This document shows positions 9,081 to 64,000 of a DNA stretch of 64,000 nt, piece by piece. Each line of letters begins with the position of its first letter. The first letter of the stretch is position 1. The DNA comes from an uncultured Clostridia bacterium (GTDB lineage: Bacteria > Bacillota > Clostridia > Christensenellales > Borkfalkiaceae): contig CANQOT010000006.1 of the NCBI GenBank assembly GCA_947625555.1, forward strand, positions 14,248-78,247, written 5' to 3'. The notes beneath the pieces are model-generated. The model was not told the DNA's origin and did no database searches. It was given only the letters and a program-made list of their open reading frames with translations. The position numbers and the translations under genes are program-made.

Positions 9081-9114
9081 AACTGCTTCCTTTTTGATGG
9101 CAGTTTATCTTTTC

Positions 9115-21804: not shown

Positions 21805-21847
21805 GATAGACGAAGAACCCCCGAGAGGGGCAAAAAGGAGGAAAATT

Positions 21848-25292: not shown

Positions 25293-25396
25293 TTGCGACA
25301 CAAATGAATATTTTGTTGATAATGGGCTATACCATGGGCATAGGTGTATCCTTTTTTTCCCATTATCAACCGAAGGAAAAATCATTTGTGTCGCAA
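25293..25396. repeat. 104-nt nested inverted repeat in the leader/intergenic region
   Basis: Outer arms ttgcgacacaaatga (25293-25307) and tcatttgtgtcgcaa (25382-25396), 15/15 complementary. Inner arms gttgataatggg (25315-25326) and cccattatcaac (25359-25370), 12/12 complementary. Confidence 0.8.
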
Positions 25397-25475
25397 CAAT
25401 ATGGGATACTACTTACGCGGCGTCCCGTATTGGGGCGTCTTTTATTTTACAGAAAATTTTTTTGGAGGTATTCCT

Positions 25476-37532: not shown

Positions 37533-37719
37533 ATCTTGTCACCTCGATGTTCTTTTTTACAATATGATGATATCCGACCTTTCGTGCCGCCCGCCTCCCG
37601 CGACGAAAAAATTTTTGTATATTCATTTCAAAAAATATGAATATATAAAAAAATCAGAAAAAAGTATCCCAAAAATGGCGAAAAAAAGAAAAAAAATTGA
37701 AATATTGCGTGTCATTTGT

Positions 37720-47055: not shown

Positions 47056-47097
47056 AGCGATCAAAGCGTAACTTTCGGTAAAATTTACCCAAGAAAA

Positions 47098-47147
47098 GCG
47101 TCTCCCCCCGCGAATTTCCCTCAAAGATCTTCGCGGAGGGTCTACGC
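47098..47147 (+). other. Imperfect GC-rich hairpin without U-tract between the giant gene and the MoxR operon
   Basis: gcgtctccccccgcgaa (47098-47114) pairs with ttcgcggagggtctacgc (47130-47147). The inner 7 bp are perfect and the outer part is mismatched. No recognisable promoter lies in 47056-47190. Confidence 0.3.
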
Positions 47148-47190
47148 ATTTCATACGGAGAACAAAAAAATGTCAAAAGGAGCGAACAAT

Positions 47191-48405
47191 ATGGAAAAGA
47201 AAACGCTATTCAAGAAATACCATAGACGTATCGTGAAAGAGGGGATCTTGAAGTCGCTCTTCTACGGACTCATCGCGGGCAGCGGCGCGCTTCTCATCTC
47301 ATCGCTTTTCAGTTGGTTCTTCGGCTTCCGCGAGGGGATCTGGCTCTCGATCGCACTCTTCGCCGTCGGGCTTGCGGCAACTTCTCTCCCGCTCTACTTC
47401 TTGAAGTTCCGCCCCACGACCAAACAGATCGCGGTCCGCGTGGATGCCTTGGGGCTCGAAGAACGTCTGCTCACCATGATCGAGCTCGAAAACGACGATA
47501 GCTACATCGCAGCCCGGCAGAGGGACGACGCCATCCGCGCCATGAACTCCGTCGATTCGATGTTGCTCAAGATCGTCGTCTCCGTCGCACTCATCACAAT
47601 GCTCGTCGTCTCCCTCGTCATAGGGCTTGTGGGCGGCACCGCCGTCTCCTCGCTCTACTATGCGGGCGCGATCGAAAGCGGGGTGGACCTCATCGAAGGG
47701 CCCGAACACTTCTACACCTTCACCTGCCAATATAAGATGGGCACGCAGGCGGACTCGGGCATGATCGTGCTCTGGACAGATACCCTCGCCTCCACCGCGG
47801 GAGACCCCTACGACCCGCTCGCAGGGCTCGAAGCGGTGGATACCGCGATCAAAGTGAAGGAAGGGGAGGATGCTCCCGCCGTCTATGCCATCCCCGCATT
47901 CGGGTATGCGTTCGCGGGCTGGTCGGACGGTGTCACCGATCCCTACCGGCAGGATACGAACGTGCTCGGCAATATCGACGTCTCGGCGCGCTTCATCGCC
48001 ATAGGCATCAGTGTGGAGGATCCCGTTGGAGATTTTTACATGGATCCGAATGGCGAACCCGGCAACAACAACGGCAACGACAATTCGGGCAATCTCCGGC
48101 TTCCGCCCCTCAGGGATCAGAATGAGCCCGAAGATCCCAACGAGGATGACGAGGACGAGAAACGTAACGACGATCCCACCCAGCAGATCCAAGACGGGAA
48201 ACACTTCTACGGCGATTCCTTCGAAGATTCCTATGGCGATGCGCAGGACCGTCTCGGTTCCGACAGCAACATTCCCGACGAGCTCAAGGGTTGGATCTCC
48301 GATTACTACGGAAACATCGGTACGGGCGGTTCCGATCAAGGCGGCGGAACGGGCGGCGAAGGCGGCGAAGGCGGCATTGGCGGCGGCTCGAATACAAATC
48401 CCTGA
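47191..48405 (+). CDS. 3-TM membrane protein with extracellular Listeria-Bacteroides-type repeat and acidic/Gly-rich tail
   Basis: 404 aa from ATG 47191 (RBS aaaggag). TM hairpin at the N-terminus and a third TM (IVVSVALITMLVVSLVIGLVGG). FAGWSDGVTDPYRQD repeat. Tail NEPEDPNEDDEDEKRNDD...GGGTGGEGGEGGIGGG. Confidence 0.75.
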   Translation: MEKKTLFKKYHRRIVKEGILKSLFYGLIAGSGALLISSLFSWFFGFREGIWLSIALFAVGLAATSLPLYFLKFRPTTKQIAVRVDALGLEERLLTMIELENDDSYIAARQRDDAIRAMNSVDSMLLKIVVSVALITMLVVSLVIGLVGGTAVSSLYYAGAIESGVDLIEGPEHFYTFTCQYKMGTQADSGMIVLWTDTLASTAGDPYDPLAGLEAVDTAIKVKEGEDAPAVYAIPAFGYAFAGWSDGVTDPYRQDTNVLGNIDVSARFIAIGISVEDPVGDFYMDPNGEPGNNNGNDNSGNLRLPPLRDQNEPEDPNEDDEDEKRNDDPTQQIQDGKHFYGDSFEDSYGDAQDRLGSDSNIPDELKGWISDYYGNIGTGGSDQGGGTGGEGGEGGIGGGSNTNP

Positions 48406-48441
48406 CTTCATAAAAGAAATCCAATAAAAGAGAGATACAAA

Positions 48442-49437
48442 ATGGTAACAGAAAACGACATCACCCAATTCAGCGAACAATGCAACAAGATCTTCGAGCA
48501 ACTCGCACGCGACGTCATCGGACAGGAAAAGGTCGTGCAGGGCACCGTCATTGCGATGATCGCGGGCGGCAACGTGCTTTTGGAAGGTGTGCCCGGCGTC
48601 GGCAAGACGCGTCTTGTGAGAAGCCTCGGCAGGGTGTTCTCCCTTCCCTTCTCCCGTATCCAGTTCACGCCCGACCTCATGCCCGCCGACGTCACGGGTA
48701 CCAACATCATCATCAAGGACGAGAAGGGCAACTCGACGTTCTCCTTCCAGCCCGGTCCCATCTTCTCGAACATCATCCTCGCCGACGAGATCAACCGTGC
48801 GACCCCCAAGACGCAGTCCGCCCTTTTGGAGGCGATGCAGGAGCACACGGTCACGGTCATGGGCGTTTCGAGAAAGCTCAACGAGCCCTTCTTCGTCCTC
48901 GCGACGCAGAACCCCATCGAGCAGGACGGTACCTATCCGCTTCCCGAAGCGCAGATGGACCGCTTCATGTTCAAACTTCTCGTGCCCGATCCCTCGCTCG
49001 ACGAGCTGCTTCAAATCGTCAATCTGACGCAGAAGACGATGGCGGAGGTCGCGGATGCGGCTTGCACGGGCGAAGAACTTTTGAAGATGCGCGAGATCGC
49101 CTCCCAGATCCCCGTAGCGGAAGATGTCTTGAAATACGCGATGTACCTCGTCGCGGCGACGCACCCCGAAGGCGAATGTGCGACGGATGCGGCGAAAAAA
49201 TACATCCGCGTCGGCGCATCCCCCCGTGCGGGACAGGCGATCATCTCCGCGGCAAAGGTCCTTGCCCTCATCAAGGGCAGGTTCAACGTTGCCTATAACG
49301 ATCTGATCGAACTCGCTTACCCCGTTCTCCGTCATAGGATCAAGCTCAACTTCGAGGCGGTCGCAGACCGTATCTCGGCAGACGAGGTCATCTCCATGGT
49401 CATCGGAGAGGTTGAAAAAAAGTACAAAAAATCCTAA
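48442..49437 (+). CDS. MoxR-family AAA+ ATPase
   Basis: 331 aa. Walker A LLEGVPGVGKT, RIQFTPDLMPADVTG, Walker B ILADEINRATPKTQSALLEAMQE. MoxR-type C-terminal lid. Confidence 0.92.
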   Translation: MVTENDITQFSEQCNKIFEQLARDVIGQEKVVQGTVIAMIAGGNVLLEGVPGVGKTRLVRSLGRVFSLPFSRIQFTPDLMPADVTGTNIIIKDEKGNSTFSFQPGPIFSNIILADEINRATPKTQSALLEAMQEHTVTVMGVSRKLNEPFFVLATQNPIEQDGTYPLPEAQMDRFMFKLLVPDPSLDELLQIVNLTQKTMAEVADAACTGEELLKMREIASQIPVAEDVLKYAMYLVAATHPEGECATDAAKKYIRVGASPRAGQAIISAAKVLALIKGRFNVAYNDLIELAYPVLRHRIKLNFEAVADRISADEVISMVIGEVEKKYKKS

Positions 49438-49454
49438 ATAAAGGCTGAATATAA

Positions 49455-50354
49455 GTGAAAGGTTCCCTCTTAAACGACGCGTTCTTCTCGAGACTCGAGA
49501 CGATGTCGTTGAATTTGAAATCCTCCCTTGCCGGTTATTTCGGCGGAAAACACCTTGTCCGTACCTATGGGCAGACGGTGGAATTTGCCGATTTCAGAGA
49601 ATACCAGCTCGGAGACGATATTCGCCGCATCGACTGGAATCTGTTCAGCCGTTTCGAGAAGTACTTTTTAAGGCTCTATACCGATGAGAGGCAGATGCAG
49701 GTCCAGCTGTTTTTGGATTGTTCCGCATCCATGGGGAGCGCGGATCCGCGCAAGGCGGCCTATGCCGTTGCCGCGACCGCCGCACTCGGCTTTTTGGCCG
49801 TGCAGAACATGGATAAACTTACCATCAACTTTATGCGGGGCGACCAAGCGATCAACCCCTTCGGCACGATGGTGGGCAAGAATGCCTTCTTCCGTGCGAT
49901 GGGGGAGCTCGAAGAGACGGTGTTCGAGGGTGAGACGGATATCGAAAAGGCCGTCAAGAGCTGCACGGATACGGGCGAGAACAACGGGCTTTCCGTCATC
50001 ATCACCGATTTCTTTACCGATAGCGATTGGAAGAAAGCCGTCGATTACCTCCTCTATAAGAAGCGGCAGGTCCTCCTCTTGCAAATCCTCACGCGCGAAG
50101 AGGCGGATCCCGTCTACGACGGACGCGTCAACCTCATCGACTCGGAATCCGTCGATGCTTCGGATACGCGCAACATGAAGATCAGGATCACCCGTGCGAT
50201 GCAGGATGCCTACTTTGAGGCATTCCGTGATTTTGAGGAGGATATCCGCTCGTTCGCAAAGAAGCGGGGGGCGAATTTCCTCACCGTACGTACAGACGAG
50301 GCGATCGAGCGTGTCCTCTTCGGAGAGCTCTTAAAGGTAGGTGTTATGTCATGA
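49455..50354 (+). CDS. DUF58 domain protein (MoxR-associated)
   Basis: 299 aa from GTG 49455. Hallmark EFADFREYQLGDDIRRIDWN, followed by a degenerate VWA-like fold (LFLDCSASMG). Confidence 0.85.
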   Translation: MKGSLLNDAFFSRLETMSLNLKSSLAGYFGGKHLVRTYGQTVEFADFREYQLGDDIRRIDWNLFSRFEKYFLRLYTDERQMQVQLFLDCSASMGSADPRKAAYAVAATAALGFLAVQNMDKLTINFMRGDQAINPFGTMVGKNAFFRAMGELEETVFEGETDIEKAVKSCTDTGENNGLSVIITDFFTDSDWKKAVDYLLYKKRQVLLLQILTREEADPVYDGRVNLIDSESVDASDTRNMKIRITRAMQDAYFEAFRDFEEDIRSFAKKRGANFLTVRTDEAIERVLFGELLKVGVMS

Positions 50355-52366
50355 TGCAGTTACTATTGCCGTTGGGGCTTCTGTCCCTTCTCGGCGTCAT
50401 CGCACTCATCATCATCTATATCATCAAGCCCAATTACCAGCTCAAACATGTCTCGAGTACCCATATCTGGAAATTGAGTTTGAAATACAAGAAAAGACGT
50501 CTGCCCACGAGCAAATTGCGCGATATTTTGCTCTTTATCTTGCAGGCGCTCATTCTCGTGGCAATGGCCTTGATCTTGGCGAAGCCCGCCATCGTGTTTG
50601 AGAGCCAGGGCGACGCGAACGAACTCATCGCCGTGATCGATTCCTCGATGAGCATGTACACAAGTGCGCAGGACGGGACTACGCGCTTCACCCGCGCAGT
50701 GGATAAAGCCATTGCGGACTGCAACAGCGTATTCGGCGCGGAGGGGCAGGTCTCCGTCATCCTCGCCGACGATTCGCCCGAATTTCTCTATCAGCGGGAA
50801 TCCGCCGAGAATAGGAGCACGGTCATCCGTAAACTCAACGAGCTCAAGGGCGACGAAGAGGGGAAGGTGGCATGTTCCTATGGAAAGTCCGATCTCGACA
50901 AGGCGATGGAGCTGAGCGAGGCGGTGCTCGCACAAAACCCGAACGCGCAGGTCAAGATCTACACGGATAAGAATTACGAATATGTGCCCGACGACGTCAC
51001 CATCGTGCCCGTGGGCGGAGAGGATGAGAGCGAAGGGGCGTTCAACGTCGCCATTCTCGATGCACGGGCGGAATACGATGACGGCTATTACACGCTCACC
51101 GTCGAGCTCGCATGCTACGGCGCGACACGTTCCGTCGATCTGAACGTCGTCGTGTATGGCGCAAACGCCGTGGATGCGGATGAAGGCGGCGTGGACCGCC
51201 CTCCCATCACGCACACCGTGTTCTGCGACGGCGACCGCACGAAGACGGTCATCTTCCGCAACGGCGGCGGGGAGGAGACGCAGGATATCTTCTATCACGA
51301 TCTCGAGGCGACGCAGCGGTTCTACACCTTCCGTTCCATCGAGGTCTTCGTGGACGAAGAGGACAGCCTCAAGATCGACAACAGCTTCTATATCTACGGC
51401 GGACTTAAAGAAGTCCTGAAAGTGCAATATGCGAGCGGCGACAATTCGCAGGTAGGCGCCAACCCCTTCGTCAACGGCGTGCTTCCCGTCATGGTCGACG
51501 CCTTTGCCGATCGTTGGGACATCAAGGTCACCGAGGTCCAGAAGGGCGCAGAGCCCGCACTCACCGGCTTCGACTTCTACATCTTCGAGCACACCATGCC
51601 CGAGGCGCTTCCTACGGACGGCGTAGTCCTGCTTCTCGACCCGTCCACCGCGCCCATCGGATCGGATATCTATGTGCGAAGGCAGGTATCGCTCGGATCC
51701 GCATATACGACCCTCAAAATTTCCGAAGGCGCGGAGGATCATCCCTTGCTCCGCAACATCAATGCGGGCAGCATACAGGTGAGCGCCTATCGCGAGATCG
51801 ACCATGCCACCGATTACAAGGTTCTCATGACGTTCGGCAACGGCGCCCCCGCGCTGATCGCCCGCAACGAGAAGAACAGCAAGACGGCGGTCATGGGATT
51901 CAGCGTGCACAATTCCACCTTCGTCATGTTGCCCGACTGGACCCTCATGTGGTACAATCTCTTCGATTACTTCCTTCCCTCTACGGTGGTGGGGAGCACC
52001 TTCGAGATCGGAGAAAACATCGTGGTGAACGGCCGCGGCGAGAAAGTGATCTTCGAAAACGCACAGTCGATGGACGACCCCGAAGAGATCACGGACTTCC
52101 CGCATATCATCGATTCGATCGAAACGCCGGGCACCTATACGTTCGACGTTACGACGTACTTCGGGAAAAAGGCGCCGACGGAGCGCATCTTCGTGCGTCC
52201 GCCCAGAGAGGAGAGCAACATCTTCTATGTGGAAGAGGCGCTCACGGATCCCTATGCGGAGAAAGATATCATCCAAAACTACGACGATCTTCTCGTCTAC
52301 TTCGCCGCCGCGCTCGTCGGCTTGCTCTTTGTGGAGTGGGCGATCAAATCCATACAAAAATCATAA
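50351..52366 (+). CDS. BatA-like membrane protein: N-terminal double-TM (BatA_N) + VWA domain + C-terminal TM
   Basis: 671 aa. ATGA overlap with the DUF58 gene. N-terminus MMQLLLPLGLLSLLGVIALIIIYIIKP. MIDAS DSSMS (Asp codon at 50639). C-terminal TM LLVYFAAALVGLLFVEWAI. Confidence 0.8.
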   Translation: MMQLLLPLGLLSLLGVIALIIIYIIKPNYQLKHVSSTHIWKLSLKYKKRRLPTSKLRDILLFILQALILVAMALILAKPAIVFESQGDANELIAVIDSSMSMYTSAQDGTTRFTRAVDKAIADCNSVFGAEGQVSVILADDSPEFLYQRESAENRSTVIRKLNELKGDEEGKVACSYGKSDLDKAMELSEAVLAQNPNAQVKIYTDKNYEYVPDDVTIVPVGGEDESEGAFNVAILDARAEYDDGYYTLTVELACYGATRSVDLNVVVYGANAVDADEGGVDRPPITHTVFCDGDRTKTVIFRNGGGEETQDIFYHDLEATQRFYTFRSIEVFVDEEDSLKIDNSFYIYGGLKEVLKVQYASGDNSQVGANPFVNGVLPVMVDAFADRWDIKVTEVQKGAEPALTGFDFYIFEHTMPEALPTDGVVLLLDPSTAPIGSDIYVRRQVSLGSAYTTLKISEGAEDHPLLRNINAGSIQVSAYREIDHATDYKVLMTFGNGAPALIARNEKNSKTAVMGFSVHNSTFVMLPDWTLMWYNLFDYFLPSTVVGSTFEIGENIVVNGRGEKVIFENAQSMDDPEEITDFPHIIDSIETPGTYTFDVTTYFGKKAPTERIFVRPPREESNIFYVEEALTDPYAEKDIIQNYDDLLVYFAAALVGLLFVEWAIKSIQKS

Positions 52367-52378
52367 AGGAGGAAGAAG

Positions 52379-55225
52379 ATGCACGGACTTACGGTAAACT
52401 TCACACATCCTTGGCTACTTCTGCTCCTTATCCCCGCGGCGGTACTCACCCTATTGCCGTACTTCTTGCTATCCAAACGGTACAGGCGCACGCGCAACCG
52501 CATCATCTCCATGATCATGCACGGCGTCGCCTTGACGCTGGCGATCTTCGCCCTCTCGGGCATGACGTTCAGCTATACCATACACAACGACGAAAACGAG
52601 ATCTTGCTTCTTGTAGACGTCTCGGATACGGAGGAGAAGAACTGCGCGGCAAGCCGCGACTTGTTTGTGCAGGATCTCGTGGATTCGAGCGCATACGACG
52701 GATACCGCATCGGCATCGTGACGTTCGGCTTCGACCAGAGTTACACCGTTCCCTTCTCCACCGATCCTTCCGCGATCATGGACGCCTACTATAAGGCGGT
52801 GCAGAAGGAAGAGGGTGGGCCGGATAAGACGGCGACGAACATCGCGGGCGCCCTGCGCTATGCGACGACCCTTCTCCGCTATCCCGAATCCGCGAAGCTC
52901 GTGCTCGTGACGGACGGCATGCAGACGGACGAAAACGCCCGTTCCGTTATCCGTGCCATTGCGGCACAGGGCATCCGCGTCGATACCGTGAACATTTCCG
53001 AAAGCTACGATGACGACCACATCCGCGTGACGGGGATCGGCTTCCCCGACTATCACGTCGGCCTGAACGAGGAATTCAACCTCAACGTCGAACTTTTCAG
53101 CACGGTGAACGACAAAACGGCGACCATCGAGATCCGCGACAATGGGGTATTGATGGACGAGGCGGAACAGATCGTCGAACTCATCGGCGGTTCGCAGAGC
53201 GTCACCTTCCGCAAGTCCTTCACCGAGAGGGGGGTGCACGCGATCGAAGTGGTAGCGCGGGTCAACGGCGATACCCTCGAACAGAACAATACCTACTGTT
53301 CCTACTTCAATGTGGAAGTCTTTACCGACATCCTCATTCTTGAGCAGCAGGACCAATCCGAGCAGCTCTGCTCCATCCTCGAAGAGACGGAGGGGATCGA
53401 ATATGATATCGACGTCGTGAACATTTCGGATACTTCCAAGGTCCCTTCCACGCTCGATGCGCTCTGCCAATACGACCAGGTCATTTTGAACAACATTTCG
53501 AATGCGGACCTTCCGGCAGGGTTCGACGAGCTGCTCTATAACTACGTCTATTCCGCGGGCGGCGGCGTCTTTACGACGGGCGGCATGAAGGAGGGCGTCG
53601 CGAACGCCTACAACCGCCAAGACCTCGCGAACACGATCTACCAGCAGATCCTGCCCGTGCAGGCGATCGCCTATACGCCCCCCGTCGGGGTGGAGTTCGT
53701 CATCGACGTCTCGGGTTCCATGAGCGGCGGCGGTAAGCTCGACGCCGCGAAGGAGGGCGCCATTGCCTGCCTCGACGTGCTCACCGAGCGCGACTATGTC
53801 GGCGTCGTCACCCTTTCTTCCAGCTATGGCACCGTTCTGCAACCCACCCGCCGCACGCAGGAGCAGGTGATCAAAGATGCGATCAACTCGGTAAAGTCGC
53901 AGGGGAGCACGGTCTTCTCCAACGCGATCAAACGCGCGGGCGACGCGCTCAGATCTTTGAAGTCCTCGGGCAAGGTGGAAAACTGCCACATCATCCTCGT
54001 CACGGACGGTGCGCCGACCGAGGACGAGGACGTCTATCTCGACGTCGTGCAGCGCCTCAATCAGGAAAGCGGCATCACGATCTCCGTCGTGCTCATCGGC
54101 AGCCGCGATTCGCTCAGCAGCGCCTACGATAAGATGGTGACGCTCACGAGCGAACAATACGGCAACGGGCAATGCTATCTGGAAGAGCCCAATATGATCG
54201 CCAAAGTCATGCAGGACGATATCCGCGCGAAGCAGATCGAAGAGACCGAGCAGGTGGATTTCCACCCCGTCATCACCGATCCGCTCTCCAATCTCGCCGC
54301 AGGGCTCACGCACGAGACATTCGACGAGGAGGATAACTCCGGGCAGCTCGTCACCCATTGGCGGCTCTCCACCGTTCTCAAAGGATTTTACGGCACCCGT
54401 GCGCGTTCGAGCGCGCAGACCGTCATGACGGGCGAATACGGCGTTCCCATCTATTCGCAATGGCGGTTCGGCAGGGGCATGGTGGGAAGTTTTATGTGTG
54501 ACCTTTACGGAGAGTGGTCGGGCGAGTTCATCCGCGATGCCAACGGGAAACGCTTCATCCAGAACGTCGTCGCGGGGCTCATGCCCATCGAGAGCATCCG
54601 CTCGCAGGAGATCAAGCTCAACCTGCACGAAGAGAACTATATCAACCAGCTCGGCGTCTCCGTCTCCCTCGGGGAGGGGGATCGGGTAGAGGCACGCATC
54701 GTGCCGATCACAAGCAACGGCACCGCCGATGTGAGCGCCGCAGTCTCCCTCATCCAAAACCCCGATGAGATCTTACGCGACGACGTGTATGTGACGACCT
54801 ATTTGAGCGCAGCCAACCGCTATTCGCGCTGCGACTTCGTCATCAAGACGCCCGGCATATATCGCATCGAGATCATGCGCTACAATGCGGCAAACGAAAA
54901 GACGGCCGAAGCCTACGTCTACAAGACGCTCTCCTATTCCAAAGAATATACGGATTGGGTGGATACGGACGGCACGACGGACGGGACGAATCTGCTCAAA
55001 GAACTTGCCCAAAACGGGGGAGGAAAGGTCGTCGACTCATTCGATCCGTTTGCGGTATTCGACGGGCTCATCCCCGAGATCCACAGGACGTACGACCCGA
55101 GGATCATGTTCATGGTCATCGCCATCGTGGCGTTCCTGCTCGACATTCTCGTGAGAAAGTTCAAATTCAAATGGCCGCACGAGCTCTACCGTGAATACAA
55201 ACAGAGGAAGGAGGAAGAAAAATGA
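52379..55225 (+). CDS. BatB-like membrane protein: BatA_N + two VWA domains + beta-rich region + C-terminal TM
   Basis: 948 aa. RBS aaaggagg. N-terminus FTHPWLLLLLIPAAVLTLLPYFLL. First VWA has DVSDT; the second has a canonical MIDAS, IDVSGSMSGGGKL. C-terminal TM IMFMVIAIVAFLLDILV. Confidence 0.85.
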   Translation: MHGLTVNFTHPWLLLLLIPAAVLTLLPYFLLSKRYRRTRNRIISMIMHGVALTLAIFALSGMTFSYTIHNDENEILLLVDVSDTEEKNCAASRDLFVQDLVDSSAYDGYRIGIVTFGFDQSYTVPFSTDPSAIMDAYYKAVQKEEGGPDKTATNIAGALRYATTLLRYPESAKLVLVTDGMQTDENARSVIRAIAAQGIRVDTVNISESYDDDHIRVTGIGFPDYHVGLNEEFNLNVELFSTVNDKTATIEIRDNGVLMDEAEQIVELIGGSQSVTFRKSFTERGVHAIEVVARVNGDTLEQNNTYCSYFNVEVFTDILILEQQDQSEQLCSILEETEGIEYDIDVVNISDTSKVPSTLDALCQYDQVILNNISNADLPAGFDELLYNYVYSAGGGVFTTGGMKEGVANAYNRQDLANTIYQQILPVQAIAYTPPVGVEFVIDVSGSMSGGGKLDAAKEGAIACLDVLTERDYVGVVTLSSSYGTVLQPTRRTQEQVIKDAINSVKSQGSTVFSNAIKRAGDALRSLKSSGKVENCHIILVTDGAPTEDEDVYLDVVQRLNQESGITISVVLIGSRDSLSSAYDKMVTLTSEQYGNGQCYLEEPNMIAKVMQDDIRAKQIEETEQVDFHPVITDPLSNLAAGLTHETFDEEDNSGQLVTHWRLSTVLKGFYGTRARSSAQTVMTGEYGVPIYSQWRFGRGMVGSFMCDLYGEWSGEFIRDANGKRFIQNVVAGLMPIESIRSQEIKLNLHEENYINQLGVSVSLGEGDRVEARIVPITSNGTADVSAAVSLIQNPDEILRDDVYVTTYLSAANRYSRCDFVIKTPGIYRIEIMRYNAANEKTAEAYVYKTLSYSKEYTDWVDTDGTTDGTNLLKELAQNGGGKVVDSFDPFAVFDGLIPEIHRTYDPRIMFMVIAIVAFLLDILVRKFKFKWPHELYREYKQRKEEEK

Positions 55226-58059
55226 AAAAGATAAGTCTGATCATCTCTGCCATCCTGATCCTGACCCTCTCTTTTGCCTTTACCGGCTGCTCGCATGAGA
55301 CGCTCTCCACACCCGTCAATCTGTATGCGAACGAAGAGGAAAATCTCATTTGGTCTCCCGTAGACAACGCCCGCAGCTATGAGGTAAAGATCACCGATAT
55401 CGCGTCAGGGACCTCCTCGACGCGCAGTGCGCGCCGCCCTTCCTACGGGCTCGCGACGCTCGCCGAAGGGGACTACGATATCTGTGTGCGCGCGTGCGGT
55501 CTGCACAACGTCTATTCGGAATGGTCGCTCACCCTCTCCTTCAAAAAGGAGAAGGATATGGGCTACACCTTCATGGCGTTGAACGACGGGTCCGCGTGGG
55601 CGCTCACGTCTGCGCGCGTCTCTGCGGGGGATGTGACGATCCCGGATAACTATCGCGGCAAGCACATCATCGAGATCGCAGACGGTGCCTTCCGCAACAA
55701 CCAGCAGATCACTTCCGTTAAGTTCGGCAAATATGTGCGCGCCTTCGGAAGCCGCGTGTTCTACAACTGCATCGGGCTCAAATCGGTGGAGATCCCCAAG
55801 GAGCTCGTCCGCTTCGGCGATTCCAATTTCCAGAACTGCGCGCTGCTCGAGAGCGTCGAACTTCCCGAGACGCTCGATAGCATTCCCGACTTCACCTTCG
55901 CCTATTGCGGCTCGCTCACATCCTATACCATCTCCGAAAACGTGAAGAGCATCGGGGAATCGGCGTTCTATTACTGCTCGTCGATCAAAGAGATCGTTCT
56001 TCCCGACAGCGTGGAGACCATCGGAGAGTACGCCTTTGCGCACGACGATGCACTCGTCTCCGTCGAACTCGGCGAGGGGGTAAAGTCCATCGGTCCGACT
56101 GCGTTTTACAGCAACGAGGCCCTCACCTCGGTGACCTTCCGCGGGACATCCTACGAAGGGCTTCAGCTCGGGGATGGCGCGTTCTCGAATTGCCCCATAC
56201 TTGTGGACATCGAACTTCCCGAGGGGACGGAGAGTATCCCCGAGAGCTGTTTCGAAGGGGATACGAACCTTACGGATATCCAAATTCCCGAGAGCGTGGG
56301 CAGCGTGGGAAGCAACGCCTTCCTCGATACGCCCGCCTATGCGAATGCCGCGACGGAAGCGGTATATGTGGACGGCTGGCTCGTCTCCTACCCGCAGGAG
56401 CAGAAGGCGACGCTCTCGGAGCTTTTCCCCGACGATTTCCAAACCGGTACGGTCGGGATCGCCGAGAATGTCTTCATTTCTTGCACAGAGCTGATGCAAG
56501 TGACGATCCCGAGCAGTCTGAAATATGTCGGGCGCGCCGCCTTCGCAGCGTGCGAGAAACTATGGAAGTTTATGACGGAGGAGCATTCAAAGATCGAGAC
56601 GATCGGGGAGCTCGCTTTCTACTATTGCAGGCGGCTTTCGCAAGTCGGGTTCCGCTGCGCATCCGATGCGGGGCTCAAATCGATCGAAGACTATGCCTTC
56701 TACGGCTGCACGCCGCTCGACAACAACGCGACCGATCCCACCCTTCTCGTTCCCGAGACGGTGACCCATATCGGAGACAGGGTATTCGAAGGCACGGGGA
56801 TCACTGCAAATGCGGACATGTATGGCTTATATTACGCCGGAGACTGGGTAGTCGGCTTCGATCCCGATCGCGAAGTGAGGAACGTCACTTTGCGGGACGG
56901 CGTGACCAATGGTACGCGTGCCGTGCGCGGCATCGCCGATTATGCTTTCTATAACGATGAAGTCCTCACGACGATCGACGGGATCGCGCGCGTGCGCTAT
57001 ATCGGCGAAGATGCGTTCATGTTCTGCTCCGAGCTTCAACAGATCACCCTGAACACCAACATGACCGAGATCGCGCCCGGCGCATTCTTCCAATGTTCGC
57101 ATATGACGATCGCCGGCGGATTCCCGGAGGGGCTTACCTCCATCGGCGAGATGGCGTTCTTCCAGTGCGACAGCCTGACCCGCATCGACCTCTCCGGCAC
57201 GGAAGTCAAGGAGATCGGGTCGCTCGCATTTTTCAGCTGCGGCTCCCCCGTGCAGAACGGTCCGTCTGCATCGCCCCTCGAGATCAAACTTCCCGAAGGG
57301 CTCACCACGATCGGAGATTATGCCTTCTGCCTGTGTTCGGAAGTCTCCGTCGAGATCCCGGGATCTGTGCGGAATTTCGGCTTTGAGGCTTTCGGGGAGA
57401 GCCCGTTCCTCTCCTCGCTCACGCTACACGAGGGGCTTGAAGAGATCCCGGCGTATGCCTTCCGCAACGCGGGGATCGTCTCGCTCGAACTGCCCGATTC
57501 CCTCAAGCGCATCGGGGTTGGCGCCTTCTACCAATGCGCCGGCCTCGAAGAGATCAGCTTCGGAAACGGGCTCGAGGAGATCGACGATTACGCCTTCGCC
57601 TTTGCCCTGTCGCTCAAGTCGCTCGAACTTCCCGAAACCATCAGATCGATCGGGGACGGCGCGTTCCTCTATTGCTTGGAACTCCCTGCCGTCATCCTGC
57701 CCGAGAGCCTCGGATATCTCGGGAACAATGTCTTCTACGGCACGGATACAACGTTCTATACCGCCCTCGACGCGATGCCCGAGGCATGGAGCGCAAGATG
57801 GAACGCATCCTACCGCCCCGTCGTATGGGGGGCGGAGCTCTCCGAGGGAGGGGACTATGTCGTATCCGTTTCCGCACTTATGCTCAAGGGCGTGAAGGTG
57901 CGCGGCGGCCTGAAAGTTCCCGCACGCGCAGGCTTTGAATTCCTCGGCTGGTCGACGCAGCAGAATGCGACACAGCCCGAATATGAAGCGGGTAGCGATC
58001 TTTCCTCGCTTCCCGATGAAACCATTCTCTACGCGGTCTACGGGTCGTCGGTACAATAA
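55222..58059 (+). CDS. BspA-type LRR lipoprotein (945 aa) with N-terminal Fn3-like and C-terminal Listeria-Bacteroides repeat
   Basis: ATGA overlap with the upstream VWA gene. Lipobox LTLSFAFTGCSHE. ARSYEVKITD Fn3-like unit. LRR_5 units (IPDNYRGKHIIEIADGAF.., LPDSVETIGEYAFAH..). C-terminal GFEFLGWSTQQN. Confidence 0.88.
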   Translation: MKKISLIISAILILTLSFAFTGCSHETLSTPVNLYANEEENLIWSPVDNARSYEVKITDIASGTSSTRSARRPSYGLATLAEGDYDICVRACGLHNVYSEWSLTLSFKKEKDMGYTFMALNDGSAWALTSARVSAGDVTIPDNYRGKHIIEIADGAFRNNQQITSVKFGKYVRAFGSRVFYNCIGLKSVEIPKELVRFGDSNFQNCALLESVELPETLDSIPDFTFAYCGSLTSYTISENVKSIGESAFYYCSSIKEIVLPDSVETIGEYAFAHDDALVSVELGEGVKSIGPTAFYSNEALTSVTFRGTSYEGLQLGDGAFSNCPILVDIELPEGTESIPESCFEGDTNLTDIQIPESVGSVGSNAFLDTPAYANAATEAVYVDGWLVSYPQEQKATLSELFPDDFQTGTVGIAENVFISCTELMQVTIPSSLKYVGRAAFAACEKLWKFMTEEHSKIETIGELAFYYCRRLSQVGFRCASDAGLKSIEDYAFYGCTPLDNNATDPTLLVPETVTHIGDRVFEGTGITANADMYGLYYAGDWVVGFDPDREVRNVTLRDGVTNGTRAVRGIADYAFYNDEVLTTIDGIARVRYIGEDAFMFCSELQQITLNTNMTEIAPGAFFQCSHMTIAGGFPEGLTSIGEMAFFQCDSLTRIDLSGTEVKEIGSLAFFSCGSPVQNGPSASPLEIKLPEGLTTIGDYAFCLCSEVSVEIPGSVRNFGFEAFGESPFLSSLTLHEGLEEIPAYAFRNAGIVSLELPDSLKRIGVGAFYQCAGLEEISFGNGLEEIDDYAFAFALSLKSLELPETIRSIGDGAFLYCLELPAVILPESLGYLGNNVFYGTDTTFYTALDAMPEAWSARWNASYRPVVWGAELSEGGDYVVSVSALMLKGVKVRGGLKVPARAGFEFLGWSTQQNATQPEYEAGSDLSSLPDETILYAVYGSSVQ

Positions 58060-58076
58060 AAAGAAGGAGAACTTCT

Positions 58077-61000
58077 ATGATGAAGAGAGCAACAAGAAAC
58101 ATTTTGACTTGCATTTTGCTTGCACTCAGTGTGCTTTGCCTCGTGCTTGCGGGATGCGGATCCAAAGGTGTCAAATTCAAATTTGAGACCAACGGCGCAG
58201 ATCCCATCGATGCGATCGAGGCGAAAGCAGGCGACGAGGTGGAACTTCCCACCCCCGAATGGGAGGGGCACAGCTTCGAGGGCTGGTACGAAAATGCCGA
58301 GCTCAGCGGCAGCCCCGTGACGAAGTTCACCGCCGAAAAGAGCAAGACCTTCTACGCAAAGTGGGAACAGCTCTACGAAGTCACCCTCTCCGTGGGCGGC
58401 GGCACGCTCGCAGAGCATCCCAAGATCTGGCTGAAAGCGGGGGCGAACCTTGCGGAGGCAGTGAAGGACTATGTGCCCACCTATGCCGATCACACCTTCG
58501 GCGAATGGCTCATGAACGGGACTGCGCTCCAAGAGAGCGCCGTCATGCCCGCGGCAAACGTCACGCTCACCGCGCACTATAAGGTGAAATATACCGTTCA
58601 TGTATGGCTTCAAAACGTTGCACAAAACGGGTACGAAGCGGGCGAGGATATCACGGGATATGATTATCCCGCACAGGACTACACGCCCGAAGTCACTGTC
58701 CACGGGTTCGAAGTGGCGACCCATGAAGGGGAGAACAAGACCCACGCGCTCACGGATACGGTCGCGCAGAACGACTACACGTTCTATATGAACAGGAAGA
58801 CGATCGCGCTCACCCTCCGCACCAACTATCCCGACGGCAAAGAGGATGCGACGAAGAGCATCAGCTACGTCTTCGGGCAGGAGGTGGACCTTCCCGATCC
58901 CATGCACACCGACGAGGCGTTCCCGCTCGAGACGGAGGGCTATCTCTTCGTGGGTTGGGCAAAGAGTATCACGGGCAGCGTTGAATATGCCTCCCAATGG
59001 TTGCAGGGGCAATTCCAAAACGTGTCCGCCGAGGCGGAGAGGGATTCCTTCGCGGTGGATGCGGAGAGGCTCTATGCCGTATGGGCAGAGGGCGCAAAAG
59101 ATATCTTCGGCGGCGAGGACCTCATCTTTCACACCGAGACGGATGCGGAGCACGTAGTTATGTTGCGGCAGGGCGACTACTACAGAGGAAGCTATCGTGC
59201 CAATTCCAAGTCCTTTACATTCGATCTCGGAGGGGAAAAGACCCTGCAAGGCAAGTTCTACGATGGCACATATGCCTACTACAACGAGAACAGACAGGGG
59301 CAGTACCTCGAATATACGTCGCAGAACGGCGTCGACACAACGCGTTCCATCACCCTCGGCTTTTACAACGAGATCACATTTACCGTTCACTCGAGCATGA
59401 GCGCGACGGCTTCGGAGGGCTCCTACACCTTCGACGACGACGGGAACCTCGTGGCGTTCTTCGATGAGGGCGAGCTGGCGGGCGTTACGTGGACGATGAT
59501 GCTCGGCTATGTCACCAATTCGTCGTCGGGAACGTCCACCAGAGTGTTCTTGGTGCGCAACGAAGAGGAATATGAATACGGCCCGCTCATGCTTTGCAGC
59601 GTCTCGGGAGGAAAGCTCGGCTACTATTCCGCCATCCTCACGATGGACGGCTTCGGCAATGCCAACATTGTCTCGCAATCCATATCCGGCACCATCTCCC
59701 AAACGAACTACATCTACGTTTCGAGAGGGGATATTATCAGCCTCTACACCACGTCAAACCGCTCCCTCTATGGTACATTCAAGCACCTCACCATTGACGG
59801 CAACGAGTATTTTGCGGTCTACGAATCTTCGATCGACAATACCTTTACGGCCGCAAACGGCGAAACGCTCACCCTCGACGGGACTTTCAACGCGACCTAC
59901 ACTGCGGGCAGCACCGTGATCGATGGGTATTACGAGGCGGCCGAAAGCGTTTTCGGCGGATACATCATCACCCTTACCGAAGAGAACGGAACGCAGCATC
60001 TCTTCCGCATCTATACGGGGACCCGGGAAGTCACGGATCCGGGGACGGGCAGACCGACGACGCAGAGGACCTATCTCCTCGAAGTCAAAGATCAAGCATA
60101 TAAGGAATACATCTACAACAACGAGGAAAACAACTACCGTTCGCCCCTTCTCGTCATCGAAGACGCGAAGAACGCCTCCCTCTACGGCTACACCCGCCAA
60201 GGGGTCTATGTCAAGGTCGCCGAGGGTGAATACAGTTACAGCGCAACGACGGGCAACTACACCTTCACCGTCAAGACACCCATCGCGACGGAGGAAGATC
60301 TCTTCCGCGAGCCCATCGATGTGACGCTGGTGGAATCCTTCGTCTACTCGGTCGGCGTCGCCTCCGGCATGGACGTGACCTATTGGCACTCCGTGACCTA
60401 TCGAGAGGAAGAACCCACAAACTTCGAAAAGAAATACACGAACGCAGACGGCGGCACGCTCTATCTCGTCGGCGGGTTTGCGATCTACAAGGCGGCGGAT
60501 GCCGCCGAGAGCGTGACGAGCGTCTTTACGGAAGTGAACGGCTACGAGAACACCATCCGCATCACCGTCGGTGAAAGCTATGTCTACTTCGAGCTCACCG
60601 AGGGCGCGGAGGGCGCGGCAGGCACTTATGCCATCCTCGAGAAGCTGCTCGGCGGTGCGACGGAACGCCTTGCCGACGGCACGTCGAACAGAAGCGTCAC
60701 CTTCACCTTCGACGGCAAGGGCGGCGCAACGCTTACGACGGCGCAGAGCGAAGGCGATCCCGTTGTCGTGGAAGGCAGCTACGAAGAGACCGACGCGACG
60801 AAGTTCGAGACGAAAGTCTATCACTTCACGCCGAAGGATGGCACGGATGGCTTTGATTTCATCCTGCTCTCCTCTTCCTCCGCGACCTATTTCGCCCGGT
60901 TCAATCGGGATGTTGCGCTTGAGCTCACCTCCGCGGAAGACGGCGGCAAACTCACCCTCGACGGCTATTCCTACATGGCGGAATACACCCTTCCCGAAGG

Positions 61001-63290
61001 CGAAGCGGAAGAGGGGGAAGGCGTCATCCGCGGGTTGTATGCCGTCAATGGAGACGCCATCGAGCTCACCGTGCCGCTTACAAACGGCAGCAGCGTTATC
61101 CTCTACTTCGACCTCGATGAAAGCGACCACACGAAGTTCACCCTGCGCGGGGGCGAGGCGGGCACTTATCTGCGCTTCGACAACCAATACATGAACGGGA
61201 TCTCCTACGCGCTCGACGGGCACGGACACGTTACCGTGTCGAAGTATGATCTGGATGCCGAAGAGCTGCAAGAACCGACCGTCATCGATGAAAACGGGAC
61301 CTATACCTACGACGAAGCCACGGAGCAGTACACCATCAAATATCACGACGGCGGCGATGAGATCATCGTGGTAGGCATTCTCGGTACCTATCCCATCTCC
61401 AACACGCAGTCTCTCCGCATCTTCATCATCGAACAGAAGGAAGCATTCCTCCGCAAGTATGTCAACAAGGCGGATTGGACGGTGTTCATTCCCGATAGCA
61501 TCGGCAACGCCGTTCGCTACACCGAGCTGGGCGTCAGAGAGAGGGGGACCTACGTTATCATCGAGGAAACCGACGGGAAAGGCCTCCTCTACTATGTCAA
61601 CAGCGCGGGCACCGACGCTTGCCTCTACCGCTACGATACGTCATTGGGCACCGTTGAGAAGATCGTCTATAAGGAACGCGGCTACTACACGCAGGATCTG
61701 CGCTCGCTCCGCTTCACGCCCTACGGCTTCATGATCATGGACGGCGAGACCCGCTACTACTACACCGTGGACGGCGACGGAAAGATCACCACCTATCTGC
61801 TCGATCCCGAAAATACGGCTGCGAACGAATTTGGCTACGTGGTGGGTGAGCTCGGGAGCTTCGAGAAGACGATCACGATCGAAGGCACGATTTATTACAA
61901 CAACAACGACGGCTATGCCATCCATTTCTACCGCGACACGGCGTCGCAGGACGACTTCCCCCTGAAGGATGAAGAGGGGAATGTTGTGCGCGGCACGCTC
62001 GGCGAGCTGACCTTCACGCCCACGGGTGCGGCGGAATTCCGCGTTCGGGGCACTGTCGAGATCGAAGGTGAGGCCGTCGTCTGCACGGTTGTCCGTGCGA
62101 ATACAAGCGCAGAGGGCGAAGAGGCCGTCTACGAGCTCTATGTTCTCATCGAAAACGACCGCTACTATATCGATGTGGCCTATACGGGAGATACGCAAAA
62201 TTCCTACGCAGTTTCGGCGCTCAGCAACTACATCTCCGTATATAACAATAACTTCTATCAGGACTACTATTTACTTTACGCGCTTCTGCAATTGTTCGGC
62301 GGATCGACGTCGATCCTCAATTCTCTCGATCCGACGCAGTATGGCACGCTCACCATCATCTGCGAGTACGATAAGGACGGAATGCCGGCTGATCCTTATA
62401 TCGACGCAGAGCTCAGCGCAGGCGCCCTCGTTTTGGAGGACGGCACCGTCGTCACCTCTCTCAAGCACGTGCCCTACGAGTTCGATGAGGAGACGAACTA
62501 CTACATCGCAGATTATCAAGGCGCGGACGGCGAGAATTACAAGTTCTACTTCGGGATCCTTCCCAACAGCGCCTTCGGGGTCTACGCCTACAATCTGTTT
62601 GCCTGCACGAAGACGCAGACGCTCACAGACGGCATCTACAAGGTGGAGGTCGAGCGCGTCGTTGCGACTGACTATCAAAGCGTTTCGCGCGGAGGGATCT
62701 GGACCATCAAGCTCTTTGAGAACGGGCAGGAGATCGAGCTTGAAGACGACAGCTTCTTCGTCTTGGGTAAATTCTATGCCATAACGCGCACCCGTCAGCA
62801 CCTCAGCACGGATGCCGAAGGCGTGGACACCGGGAAGATCACGGGTACGACCTACTACATCATCACCCTCACAGAGGCGACGGTGGAAGAGACGCCCGCT
62901 CCCGGCGGCGACGAAGAGACGGAAGAGACCCCCGGCGGCGAGACGGAGGAAGGCGGCGAACAGACGCCCGCCACCCCTCAGCCCATTGCGCCCTACGAGT
63001 CCGTGACTGTGGAAAAACACGAGATGAAGACGGTCTACTTCCTCGTCAACGGCACGGAGAGTCCGTTCTACTTCGTCGATATCTACAAGGACGATAACGA
63101 CAAGGGCGTTGCGTTCTACTACTACGGCGGTTCGTGGCACTTTGCCGAGAGCTGCACCTACGACGAGGCGACCAAGACGTACACTGCAACCCTTTACAAC
63201 GAGGGCATGCAGGTCCGGATCACGATCTCCACGACGGAGGAAGGCAGGGAGCAGGCGACGCTCACCACTGTGCAGACATCCAATCCCTGA
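58077..63290 (+). CDS. Giant (1737 aa) lipoprotein: three Listeria-Bacteroides repeats followed by ~1350 aa of unassignable Tyr/Thr/Gly/Glu-rich sequence
   Basis: RBS aaggag. Lipobox LCLVLAGCGS. Repeats FEGWYENAELSG, FGEWLMNG and FVGWAKS in the first ~330 aa. Acidic Pro/Glu linker near the C-terminus (EETPAPGGDEETEETPGGETEEGGEQTPATPQP). Confidence 0.85.
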   Translation: MMKRATRNILTCILLALSVLCLVLAGCGSKGVKFKFETNGADPIDAIEAKAGDEVELPTPEWEGHSFEGWYENAELSGSPVTKFTAEKSKTFYAKWEQLYEVTLSVGGGTLAEHPKIWLKAGANLAEAVKDYVPTYADHTFGEWLMNGTALQESAVMPAANVTLTAHYKVKYTVHVWLQNVAQNGYEAGEDITGYDYPAQDYTPEVTVHGFEVATHEGENKTHALTDTVAQNDYTFYMNRKTIALTLRTNYPDGKEDATKSISYVFGQEVDLPDPMHTDEAFPLETEGYLFVGWAKSITGSVEYASQWLQGQFQNVSAEAERDSFAVDAERLYAVWAEGAKDIFGGEDLIFHTETDAEHVVMLRQGDYYRGSYRANSKSFTFDLGGEKTLQGKFYDGTYAYYNENRQGQYLEYTSQNGVDTTRSITLGFYNEITFTVHSSMSATASEGSYTFDDDGNLVAFFDEGELAGVTWTMMLGYVTNSSSGTSTRVFLVRNEEEYEYGPLMLCSVSGGKLGYYSAILTMDGFGNANIVSQSISGTISQTNYIYVSRGDIISLYTTSNRSLYGTFKHLTIDGNEYFAVYESSIDNTFTAANGETLTLDGTFNATYTAGSTVIDGYYEAAESVFGGYIITLTEENGTQHLFRIYTGTREVTDPGTGRPTTQRTYLLEVKDQAYKEYIYNNEENNYRSPLLVIEDAKNASLYGYTRQGVYVKVAEGEYSYSATTGNYTFTVKTPIATEEDLFREPIDVTLVESFVYSVGVASGMDVTYWHSVTYREEEPTNFEKKYTNADGGTLYLVGGFAIYKAADAAESVTSVFTEVNGYENTIRITVGESYVYFELTEGAEGAAGTYAILEKLLGGATERLADGTSNRSVTFTFDGKGGATLTTAQSEGDPVVVEGSYEETDATKFETKVYHFTPKDGTDGFDFILLSSSSATYFARFNRDVALELTSAEDGGKLTLDGYSYMAEYTLPEGEAEEGEGVIRGLYAVNGDAIELTVPLTNGSSVILYFDLDESDHTKFTLRGGEAGTYLRFDNQYMNGISYALDGHGHVTVSKYDLDAEELQEPTVIDENGTYTYDEATEQYTIKYHDGGDEIIVVGILGTYPISNTQSLRIFIIEQKEAFLRKYVNKADWTVFIPDSIGNAVRYTELGVRERGTYVIIEETDGKGLLYYVNSAGTDACLYRYDTSLGTVEKIVYKERGYYTQDLRSLRFTPYGFMIMDGETRYYYTVDGDGKITTYLLDPENTAANEFGYVVGELGSFEKTITIEGTIYYNNNDGYAIHFYRDTASQDDFPLKDEEGNVVRGTLGELTFTPTGAAEFRVRGTVEIEGEAVVCTVVRANTSAEGEEAVYELYVLIENDRYYIDVAYTGDTQNSYAVSALSNYISVYNNNFYQDYYLLYALLQLFGGSTSILNSLDPTQYGTLTIICEYDKDGMPADPYIDAELSAGALVLEDGTVVTSLKHVPYEFDEETNYYIADYQGADGENYKFYFGILPNSAFGVYAYNLFACTKTQTLTDGIYKVEVERVVATDYQSVSRGGIWTIKLFENGQEIELEDDSFFVLGKFYAITRTRQHLSTDAEGVDTGKITGTTYYIITLTEATVEETPAPGGDEETEETPGGETEEGGEQTPATPQPIAPYESVTVEKHEMKTVYFLVNGTESPFYFVDIYKDDNDKGVAFYYYGGSWHFAESCTYDEATKTYTATLYNEGMQVRITISTTEEGREQATLTTVQTSNP

Positions 63291-63307
63291 TGCGGGATAA
63301 AAAGAAA

Positions 63308-63339
63308 AGAGGCGGGTCCTTCGGGGTCCGCCTCTTTTG
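63308..63339 (+). terminator. Rho-independent terminator closing the 47.2-63.3 kb operon
   Basis: agaggcgggtcc, loop ttcg, gggtccgcctct (two G-U wobbles in RNA), followed by tttgt. Confidence 0.75.
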
Positions 63340-63453: not shown

Positions 63454-64000
63454 ATGATGATTTACAGACGTTGCTCCGTCTGCGGGAACTGCCCTTGCAC
63501 GTGCGGCTGCAACCAATGGCGTCCGTGCTGTACGGGGCAGCGCGGCGCAACGGGTCCCACGGGTCCCACGGGCCCGCAGGGCCCCGCCACGATCACGGTA
63601 GGGCAGACGATCACGGGCGAACCCGGCACGGCGGCTTCCGTCACTTCGACGGGCGGCGCGAATGCCGTGCTCACCTTCACCATCCCGCGCGGCGCGACGG
63701 GTGCGACGGGCGCGACGGGCCCGACCGGTCCGCAGGGCGTGCAGGGGTTGCAGGGCGTACAGGGCCCGCAAGGTCCCCAAGGCGCGCAGGGCGTCGCCGG
63801 TCCCCAAGGCCCCATAGGTCCCACCGGTCCCACGGGCGCAACGGGTGCGACGGGCCCCGCAGGTTCCGCAAGCGCGACGGGTGCGACGGGCCCCACCGGT
63901 CCCACCGGAGCGACGGGTGAAACGGGTCCCACCGGGCCTACCGGAGCCACGGGTGAAACGGGCCCCACCGGTCCCACCGGAGCTACGGGTGAAACGGGTC
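63454..64000 (+). CDS. Collagen-like triple-helix-repeat protein (BclA/exosporium- or phage-fibre-like), 3' end outside the window
   Basis: Not in the ORF track, because the frame is open to the window end. RBS aggagg (63443-63448), ATG 63454. Reads [110 protein letters not shown]..., continuing as G-X-Y repeats to nt 64000. Confidence 0.85.

Follow-up and report, generated by a model that had tools for sequence, protein, structure and literature searches.

We analysed a 64,000-nucleotide (nt) stretch of DNA from an uncultured Clostridia bacterium (contig CANQOT010000006.1, positions 14,248 to 78,247; hereafter the window) and observed that it carries a plus-strand cluster of eight genes, G0 to G7, in which a core like that of Bacteroides aerotolerance (Bat) operons, with a MoxR ATPase, is fixed to giant lipoproteins. 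The core itself is of a known kind, and what is new here is this fixed association. Comparison with other genomes showed that these eight genes are conserved as a self-contained block: they are tightly packed between flanks that vary, have been duplicated together and include a component specific to the cluster. Judging from the sequences, we see an even chance that G0 to G7 make up one operon, whose products assemble into a single complex anchored in the membrane at the cell surface and controlled from inside the cell. We found no description of a linkage of MoxR/DUF58/VWA genes with LRR/BspA proteins or lipoprotein adhesins among the 8 million full texts searched, in keeping with an earlier, sequence-only reading of this DNA that knew of no such description.

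An eight-gene block conserved among gut Clostridia

The cluster spans positions 37858 to 63290 (~25.5 kb; Table 1) and encodes, in order, a giant LRR_5 protein (G0), a protein with three transmembrane (TM) segments (G1), a MoxR ATPase (G2), a DUF58 protein (G3), a VWA protein (G4), a double-VWA protein (G5), a second LRR_5 protein (G6) and G7. Successive genes are separated by 135, 36, 17, −4, 12, −4 and 17 nt, and a Shine-Dalgarno sequence precedes every start codon, start codons in the window having been picked behind such sequences. The sequence-only reading had described a seven-gene operon, G1 to G7, lying 135 nt behind the LRR gene. The list of open reading frames (ORFs) agrees with its genes and spacings, but the unit comprises eight genes and begins at the 3,065-amino-acid (aa) G0, because G0 starts behind a divergent glycosyltransferase gene and has a promoter-like region of its own. 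This neighbour, a Glycos_transf_2 gene, lies on the minus strand at 36495-37532; the gene caller and Pfam favoured it over a plus-strand ORF of 368 aa (36534-37640) that was considered as a ninth gene and rejected.

At the other end of the cluster, the terminator named in that reading folds as claimed (ΔG −25.8, z −3.5); the pattern scanner did not return this site, so the fold was relied on. Terminator-like sites elsewhere were intragenic and no more frequent than in shuffled sequences. On the plus strand of the G0-G1 gap the scanner found neither a promoter nor a terminator, again as first read, and an Rfam scan of the whole window gave no matches, so that the gap holds no known riboswitch or leader. 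The G0-G1 spacer (47056-47190) is predicted to form a long imperfect hairpin (ΔG −33.7 over 135 nt) that has no U-tract.

A scan of 185,579 species-representative genomes yielded 408 related stretches, and the counts below refer to the best 80 loci. These are gut metagenome-assembled genomes (MAGs) from rabbit, roe deer, buffalo, yak, goat and humans, a few of them labelled Christensenellaceae, Ca. Borkfalkiaceae or 'Subdoligranulum sp. CAG:314'. Components were counted by tblastn with the eight window proteins, at loci whose contig reaches the position. Each was found at its expected position, G0 in 46/46 loci, G1 in 49/49, MoxR in 52/55, DUF58 in 61/64, G4 in 73/73, G6 in 78/78 and G7 in 71/72, with alignments that were full-length, colinear and on one strand. 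The linkage of MoxR/VWA and LRR genes proposed for the window therefore extends beyond this genome, as a colinear block in 46-78 loci per position. For G5 alone, over 1,000 full-length homologues (41-61% identity) were found, every one in uncultured Clostridia, and the neighbourhoods of three of them (61%, 47% and 45% identity) hold the identical eight genes in identical order. Synteny persists down to 41% (G5) and 27% (G7) identity, the most divergent G7 still lying in a cluster, and the loci span 31-61% GC. Among the matches listed, all relatives of the MoxR-DUF58-VWA genes were in-family.

The flanks of this block are variable. The longest downstream ORFs fell into 37 unrelated groups across 54 loci, and the upstream genes differed in 4/4 genomes examined. 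Within the block, a 4-nt overlap joins DUF58 to G4 in 61/62 loci, G4 and G5 are at most 24 nt apart in 75/75 and G5 and G6 overlap in 41/80, start codons at these loci having been chosen heuristically. At two loci, L076 and L073, MoxR(-DUF58) lies directly behind G7 and not between G1 and G4, and is still inside the block; the same probably holds for L033, where the contig ends. The rearrangement in this sub-lineage is seen at 20657-22612 of L076 and 20689-20799 of L073. Six MAGs carry two copies of the cluster, between which G5 is 46-51% and G7 30-36% identical. The duplicates are complete wherever contigs permit a check, and in the one pair with both moxR genes readable (L031/L081) each copy has its own moxR; judged by sequence, the duplicates are old. 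A 1.8-Mb contig carries one copy of the cluster. Spearman correlations of the component divergences (0.23-0.79) were rejected as evidence of co-evolution, as they reflect shared phylogeny.

The cluster also has a component that is rarely seen elsewhere. A full HMMER pass over 1.84 billion representatives found 249 relatives of G7, 207 of them below 1e-30. Among the 150 listed, nearly all are 1,630-1,860 aa long and colinear, and every full-length relative with visible surroundings lies inside such a cluster; a partial paralogue, fused to LRR_5, stands alone. Orthologues of G0 (2,750-4,000 aa) occur immediately 5' of G1 in all 46 loci with room for them. By their sequences, G0 and G6 are position-specific full-length orthologues, and the G7 family is essentially confined to these clusters. 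The proposal that giant LRR proteins simply take the place of BatC-E thus gave way to a picture of two specific orthologues and a cluster-specific G7.

Three further observations were made at the related loci. In 15/54 of them, a ninth giant gene stands directly 3' of G7 on the same strand; its product (2,461-2,597 aa) combines Peptidase_S8, PA, fn3_5 and LRR_5 domains (L005 20898-22805, L087 15453-23246). It is absent from the window and could be a protease that the system carries optionally. At L010, a large serine recombinase gene (9758-11320) follows G6 at the place expected for G7, and the contig ends soon after; a mobile element may have inserted here, or the assembly may be broken. Some clusters have only 31-34% GC (L025 and L037, also L065, L074 and L079), and the MAGs that contain them bear the labels Prevotella sp. 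and Anaeroplasma bactoclasticum; either the labels are wrong, or the cluster extends beyond Christensenellales-like Clostridia.

Table 1 Features of the cluster in the window. Identity is the mean to the window protein over 50-71 orthologues; for G0 it is the median identity of the best high-scoring segment pair.
Feature	Position	Strand	Identity	Remarks
Promoter-like site TTGTCA-16-TACAAT, 10/12	37536..37563	+		Consensus match only; in the 325-nt divergent spacer upstream of G0
G0, 3,065-aa lipoprotein, N-terminal Flg_new repeats and 16 LRR_5 stretches	37858..47055	+	about 28%	True start ATG 37858; lipobox LGAC
G1, 404-aa membrane protein	47191..48405 (ORF 47170/47191-48405)	+	37%	Flg_new_2
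G2, MoxR-type AAA+ ATPase, cytoplasmic	48442..49437	+	82%	AAA_3 and AAA_lid_2
G3, DUF58 protein (VWA-like), cytoplasmic	49455..50354	+	71%	DUF58; stop overlaps G4 start (ATGA)
G4, 671-aa long BatA-type protein	50351..52366	+	45%	BatA_N and VWA_2
G5, 948-aa double-VWA membrane protein	52379..55225	+	47%	Two VWA stretches
G6, 945-aa LRR_5 (BspA-type) lipoprotein	55222..58059	+	38%	LRR_5 x6; start overlaps G5 stop
G7, 1,737-aa lipoprotein, ~1,400-aa orphan all-beta core	58077..63290	+	32%	Flg_new repeats, lipobox
Intrinsic terminator, 15-bp hairpin, UUCG loop, then UUUU	63308..63339	+		RNA fold

Predicted layout of the components

In Pfam, G2 matched AAA_3 (1.4e-61, 206.6 bits) and AAA_lid_2 (1.2e-16) and, weakly, bpMoxR (34.5 bits versus 206.6 for AAA_3); its orthologues are 73-92% identical, and its translation carries LLEGVPGVGKT and ILADEINRA. 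The DUF58 protein, encoded directly downstream (17-nt gap; Pfam DUF58 1.3e-33), conserves the DxSxS of a metal-ion-dependent adhesion site (MIDAS) at D88, S90 and S92 and contains the motif EFADFREYQLGDDIRRIDW. Neither a TM segment nor a signal peptide was predicted for either protein, and by predicted topology DUF58 is the sole VWA-like protein of the cluster in the compartment of MoxR.

G1, G4 and G5 are predicted membrane proteins. In G1, the TM part matched no Pfam family and Flg_new_2 scored 24 bits, barely over the cut-off. In its predicted layout the basic N-terminus lies inside, and a TM hairpin leads to a conserved cytoplasmic stretch of ~50 aa and a third TM segment, beyond which come the outside Flg_new_2 domain and an acidic/Gly-rich tail. 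G4 matched BatA_N (32.6 bits, cut-off 25.9) and VWA_2, has TM segments at 4-22, 59-77 and 647-665 and conserves its MIDAS (D97, S99, S101, with DSSMS in the translation). An orphan region of ~420 aa lies between its VWA domain and the C-terminal TM segment, and a sequence search of the PDB with G4 gave nothing meaningful. G5 has two VWA stretches (VWA_2 1e-25) with the motifs DVSDT and DVSGSMS, and the MIDAS residues of both are conserved (D80 and S82 with T153 and D179 in VWA1; D443, S445 and S447 with T511 and D543 in VWA2). The motifs quoted in the sequence-only reading were all present in the translations. Profile searches bore out its calls of AAA_3, DUF58, VWA, LRR_5, Flg_new and the BatA_N of G4, whereas Pfam did not call BatA_N in G5, though this protein has a double-TM hairpin as in G4.

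An AlphaFold model of G5 (pLDDT 81.6) places a TM hairpin, VWA1, a beta-sandwich, a GATase1-like domain and VWA2 in succession, after which come more beta domains, a TM helix and a helix on the cytoplasmic side. VWA2 matched the BatB structure 3ibs (6e-12), the GATase1-like part matched STM1381-type proteins, and Foldseek with the model returned generic VWA proteins only. The C-terminal cytoplasmic tail, RKFKFKWPHE, is invariant, including its Glu. Lowering the Pfam threshold (E ≤ 5) brought up only sub-threshold noise in the orphan parts of the cluster products, namely the TM part of G1, the C-terminal 420 aa of G4, the C-terminal part of G5 and the N-termini of G6 and G0.

The three giant proteins carry lipoboxes, including FTGC in G6 and LAGC in G7, the two that the sequence-only reading had called lipoproteins. 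LRR_5 matched G0 at 3.4e-282 and G6 at 7.4e-131. Just past the lipobox of G0 (37930-38200), sub-threshold lipocalin-like matches were seen (DUF4923, Lipocalin_4; E ~0.02-0.05). G6 has a conserved N-terminal domain and a C-terminal Flg_new-like domain; 67/80 of its orthologues have a lipobox by a strict pattern, and most others have variant Cys boxes. It matched the HupY/LrrG model NF047961 (1e-56, 192.5 bits) far below the cut-off of 1250 and is not an equivalog; from the sequences, the match reflects a shared repeat type and not orthology. At residues ~710-770, the NCBIfam model of Gli349, a gliding protein of Mycoplasma mobile, also matches G6 locally (86 bits), which probably again reflects a shared repeat type.

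G7 matched Flg_new (2.5e-12) and no other Pfam domain, and a sequence search of the PDB was empty. Its core (residues 339-1538) is wholly beta in the predicted structure (pLDDT 86). Foldseek placed Rhs and teneurin at the top of its matches to this core, but with TM-scores of at most 0.11 and root-mean-square deviations of 30-40 Å. A Rhs/YD-repeat or teneurin shell was rejected on these scores and on the lack of a Pfam or PDB sequence match, and no fold was assigned, as the Foldseek matches were all-beta proteins with low TM-scores. The orthologues of G7 almost always have the lipobox Cys, with a signal anchor instead in a few. Flg_new-type domains are common to G0, G1, G6 and G7, which are all four of the outside components that lack a VWA domain.

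Topology was predicted from hydropathy and the positive-inside rule. G4 and G5 share a predicted layout with the N-terminus outside, TM1, a basic cytoplasmic loop, TM2, a large outside domain, a third TM segment and a basic cytoplasmic tail. We infer from this that the three MIDAS VWA domains, one in G4 and two in G5, lie outside the cell with the lipoproteins, which agrees with the experimentally mapped, periplasmic VWA domain of the BatA-like Borrelia protein BB0173 (PMC5700661). The surface components diverge much faster (28-38% median identity) than MoxR (82%). The best-kept stretches were the loop (K33, R36, R39, N40, R41) and the tail (RKFKFKW.HE) in G5, the TM1-loop-TM2 region in G4 and residues 80-120 in G1. 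These sequences suggest that the best-conserved parts of G1, G4 and G5 are the predicted cytoplasmic ones.

Other genes in the window

Two stand-alone LRR_5 genes lie elsewhere in the window. One, at 25344-27536, encodes 730 aa at 40-47% GC, versus ~57% for the genome, and may have been acquired horizontally; the second is located at 21776-23779. Behind the terminator, a gene at 63454-64000 that runs off the window encodes a Cys-rich N-terminus and collagen triple-helix (GxT/GPQ) repeats (Collagen 2.6e-17). On the minus strand at 7200-11325, a 626-aa protein with a Cthe_2159 carbohydrate-binding domain adjoins a 736-aa ORF that has no Pfam match. A PADLOC scan matched no defence system.

A candidate surface complex and its alternatives

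With the VWA ectodomains predicted outside and MoxR and DUF58 inside, any coupling to MoxR must span the membrane, and its likeliest route is by way of the conserved loops and tails on the cytoplasmic side. Our template for this coupling was the group of characterised MoxR-VWA pairs, RavA-ViaA, CbbQ-CbbO, NorQ-NorD and BchI-BchD, in which an AAA+ MoxR hexamer works with an adaptor of the VWA/MIDAS kind, which takes hold of the client at an acidic residue. Their clients, soluble or membrane enzymes, share their compartment, whereas the partners in this cluster are mostly extracytoplasmic. By analogy with CbbO for CbbQ and NorD for NorQ, DUF58 would serve the MoxR hexamer as its MIDAS adaptor and would engage conserved cytoplasmic segments of G1, G4 and G5, for example the G5 tail with its invariant Glu. 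These three would be integral membrane proteins with large outside domains, including the three MIDAS-competent VWA domains of G4 and G5, and the giant lipid-anchored G0, G6 and G7 would share the outside compartment with them. ATP hydrolysis would drive the assembly, or a conformational switch, of the outside VWA platform, which would hold or present the LRR lipoproteins in an integrin-like, inside-out arrangement. The output is likely to be adhesion or surface display in the gut, an envelope layer also having been considered.

The likeness to integrins is meant as a functional analogy. A MIDAS VWA ectodomain stands beside a beta-sandwich, with a single C-terminal TM segment and a short, highly conserved, membrane-proximal basic/aromatic cytoplasmic tail; homology is limited to the VWA fold, and control by an AAA+ protein is hypothetical here. 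In its most specific form, our proposal is that the cluster encodes an adhesion organelle, so far unrecognised, that resembles integrins and is controlled by ATP. In this organelle of uncultured gut Christensenellales-type Clostridia, MoxR-DUF58 would grip the tails of the VWA proteins and thereby switch, from the cytoplasm, the way in which their outside MIDAS domains retain and display the LRR giants and G7. We offer this version tentatively and would not expect it to hold in full.

Several points weigh against a single surface complex. It is uncertain whether G0 is transcribed together with G1-G7, since the G0-G1 spacer varies from ~24 to 700 nt among genomes. The relatives are all MAGs of one broad lineage, and part of the synteny is therefore due to vertical inheritance. 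The predicted topology derives solely from hydropathy and charge, and the conserved basic loops could be topogenic signals and not docking sites. Finally, the adhesin role of LRR_5 proteins is assumed from other organisms.

The closest known system is the Bat operon (Bacteroides; bat in Leptospira; bb0170-bb0176 in Borrelia). It shares with this cluster an MRP-type MoxR (AAA_3) with DUF58 and two membrane proteins that have a BatA_N-type hairpin, a MIDAS VWA domain and a C-terminal TM segment, with the VWA domain outside the cytoplasmic membrane, as in BB0173 and as predicted here. The TPR-type BatC and BatE and BatD are absent from the cluster, as noted in the sequence-only reading (no TPR or BatD Pfam match among the eight products at E ≤ 0.01). 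The VWA proteins are two to three times longer (671 and 948 aa versus ~330 aa), G5 adds GATase1-like and beta domains and a second VWA, and the cluster has four further fixed members, namely three giant lipoproteins and a membrane protein with a Flg_new-type domain. The hosts also differ, being Christensenellales-like Clostridia that are presumably monoderm. The function of the Bat proteins themselves remains undefined (PMC3557215).

This likeness makes it conceivable, if rather unlikely, that the cluster is a Bat-like envelope-maintenance or stress module, whose giant lipoproteins form a structural envelope layer or coat and are not adhesins. Mutants of Bat or MoxR-DUF58-VWA genes elsewhere show stress or aerotolerance phenotypes (PMC3557215, PMC11834572), the cluster is conserved like a housekeeping feature and is found on a 1.8-Mb contig, and G7 conserves only scattered Gly, Tyr, Phe and Asp, with no catalytic-looking motif. 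However, the surface parts evolve far faster than MoxR, which is usual for exposed interaction proteins, two diverged copies per genome suit a diversification of specificity better than a structural layer, and LRR_5/BspA proteins are binding modules where studied. G0 and G6 resemble such proteins (Tannerella BspA, Treponema LrrA, Streptococcus HupY/LrrG) in their tandem LRR_5 repeats and in being exported and surface-anchored, but the known ones stand alone, and no report ties any of them to an ATPase/VWA module in a fixed operon. A second parallel is the Bifidobacterium PFNA cluster (pkb2-fn3-MoxR-duf58-tgm), in which, in a gut commensal lineage, an MRP MoxR and DUF58 are tied to a fast-evolving surface-adhesion protein in one operon (PMC6803598). 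Its partners are a polytopic transglutaminase, a Ser/Thr kinase and an FN3 protein, none of which has a Pfam counterpart among our cluster products, and it lacks BatA-type VWA membrane proteins, LRR_5 proteins and giant lipoproteins.

The sequence-only reading had favoured a direct role, in which MoxR remodels or metal-loads the G4 and G5 VWA domains at their MIDAS or folds and loads the giant LRR proteins. Pairing of MoxR with VWA proteins is the rule in characterised systems and the MIDAS motifs of G4 and G5 are intact, but we now give this idea little credence. MoxR has neither a TM segment nor a signal peptide, lipoproteins are exported unfolded via the Sec pathway, and the only VWA-like protein in the compartment of MoxR is DUF58. 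The G4 and G5 VWA domains are predicted outside, and that of the homologous BB0173 was mapped to the periplasm (PMC5700661).

We find it similarly hard to believe that the cluster consists of two independent units, a Bat-like cassette and a set of LRR surface genes, whose proximity in a genome rich in LRR genes is due only to common descent. LRR_5 genes are frequent, with two more in the window, and all loci come from one broad lineage. Against this, G0, G6 and G7 are position-specific full-length orthologues and not arbitrary LRR genes, the flanks have turned over wholly while the block is intact, MoxR-DUF58 has relocated within the block, duplications are en bloc, and G5 and G6 share a start-stop overlap in half of the loci.

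A surface motility or 'leg' machine driven by ATP, loosely like the Gli proteins of Mycoplasma mobile or the SprB track of Bacteroidetes, is very improbable. Giant surface proteins are paired with a dedicated ATPase and G6 has its local Gli349 match, but that match covers ~60 residues of the repeat region at 86 bits against a cut-off of 1750, the cluster has no motor, track or secretion component, and motor activity is not known for MoxR ATPases. A conflict or defence system of the MoxR-vWA type, such as those reportedly catalogued by Kaur, Burroughs, Iyer and Aravind, can practically be set aside, as the weak bpMoxR match is dwarfed by that to AAA_3, Pfam found no effector, beta-propeller or nuclease/protease domains, PADLOC was negative, and the cluster is chromosomal, syntenic and vertically conserved and not patchy.

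MoxR-DUF58-BatA/B cassettes are widespread in bacteria and have been associated with stress and virulence phenotypes for 25 years, and we know of no client or mechanism for them. If the proposed complex is real, it would be the first case of a Bat-type MoxR module with a concrete mechanism and a set of clients, and a MoxR ATPase module would for the first time gain defined extracellular partners. Because the cassette in this lineage is locked to fixed extracellular partners, the question of Bat-module targets becomes a testable protein-protein problem. The G7 family, at 1,700 aa and essentially confined to the cluster, offers a clean genomic marker. In conclusion, the cluster is large, conserved and sometimes duplicated in poorly known, widespread gut bacteria of humans, rabbits and ruminants, and is therefore likely to be central to their attachment to, or interaction with, their surroundings.

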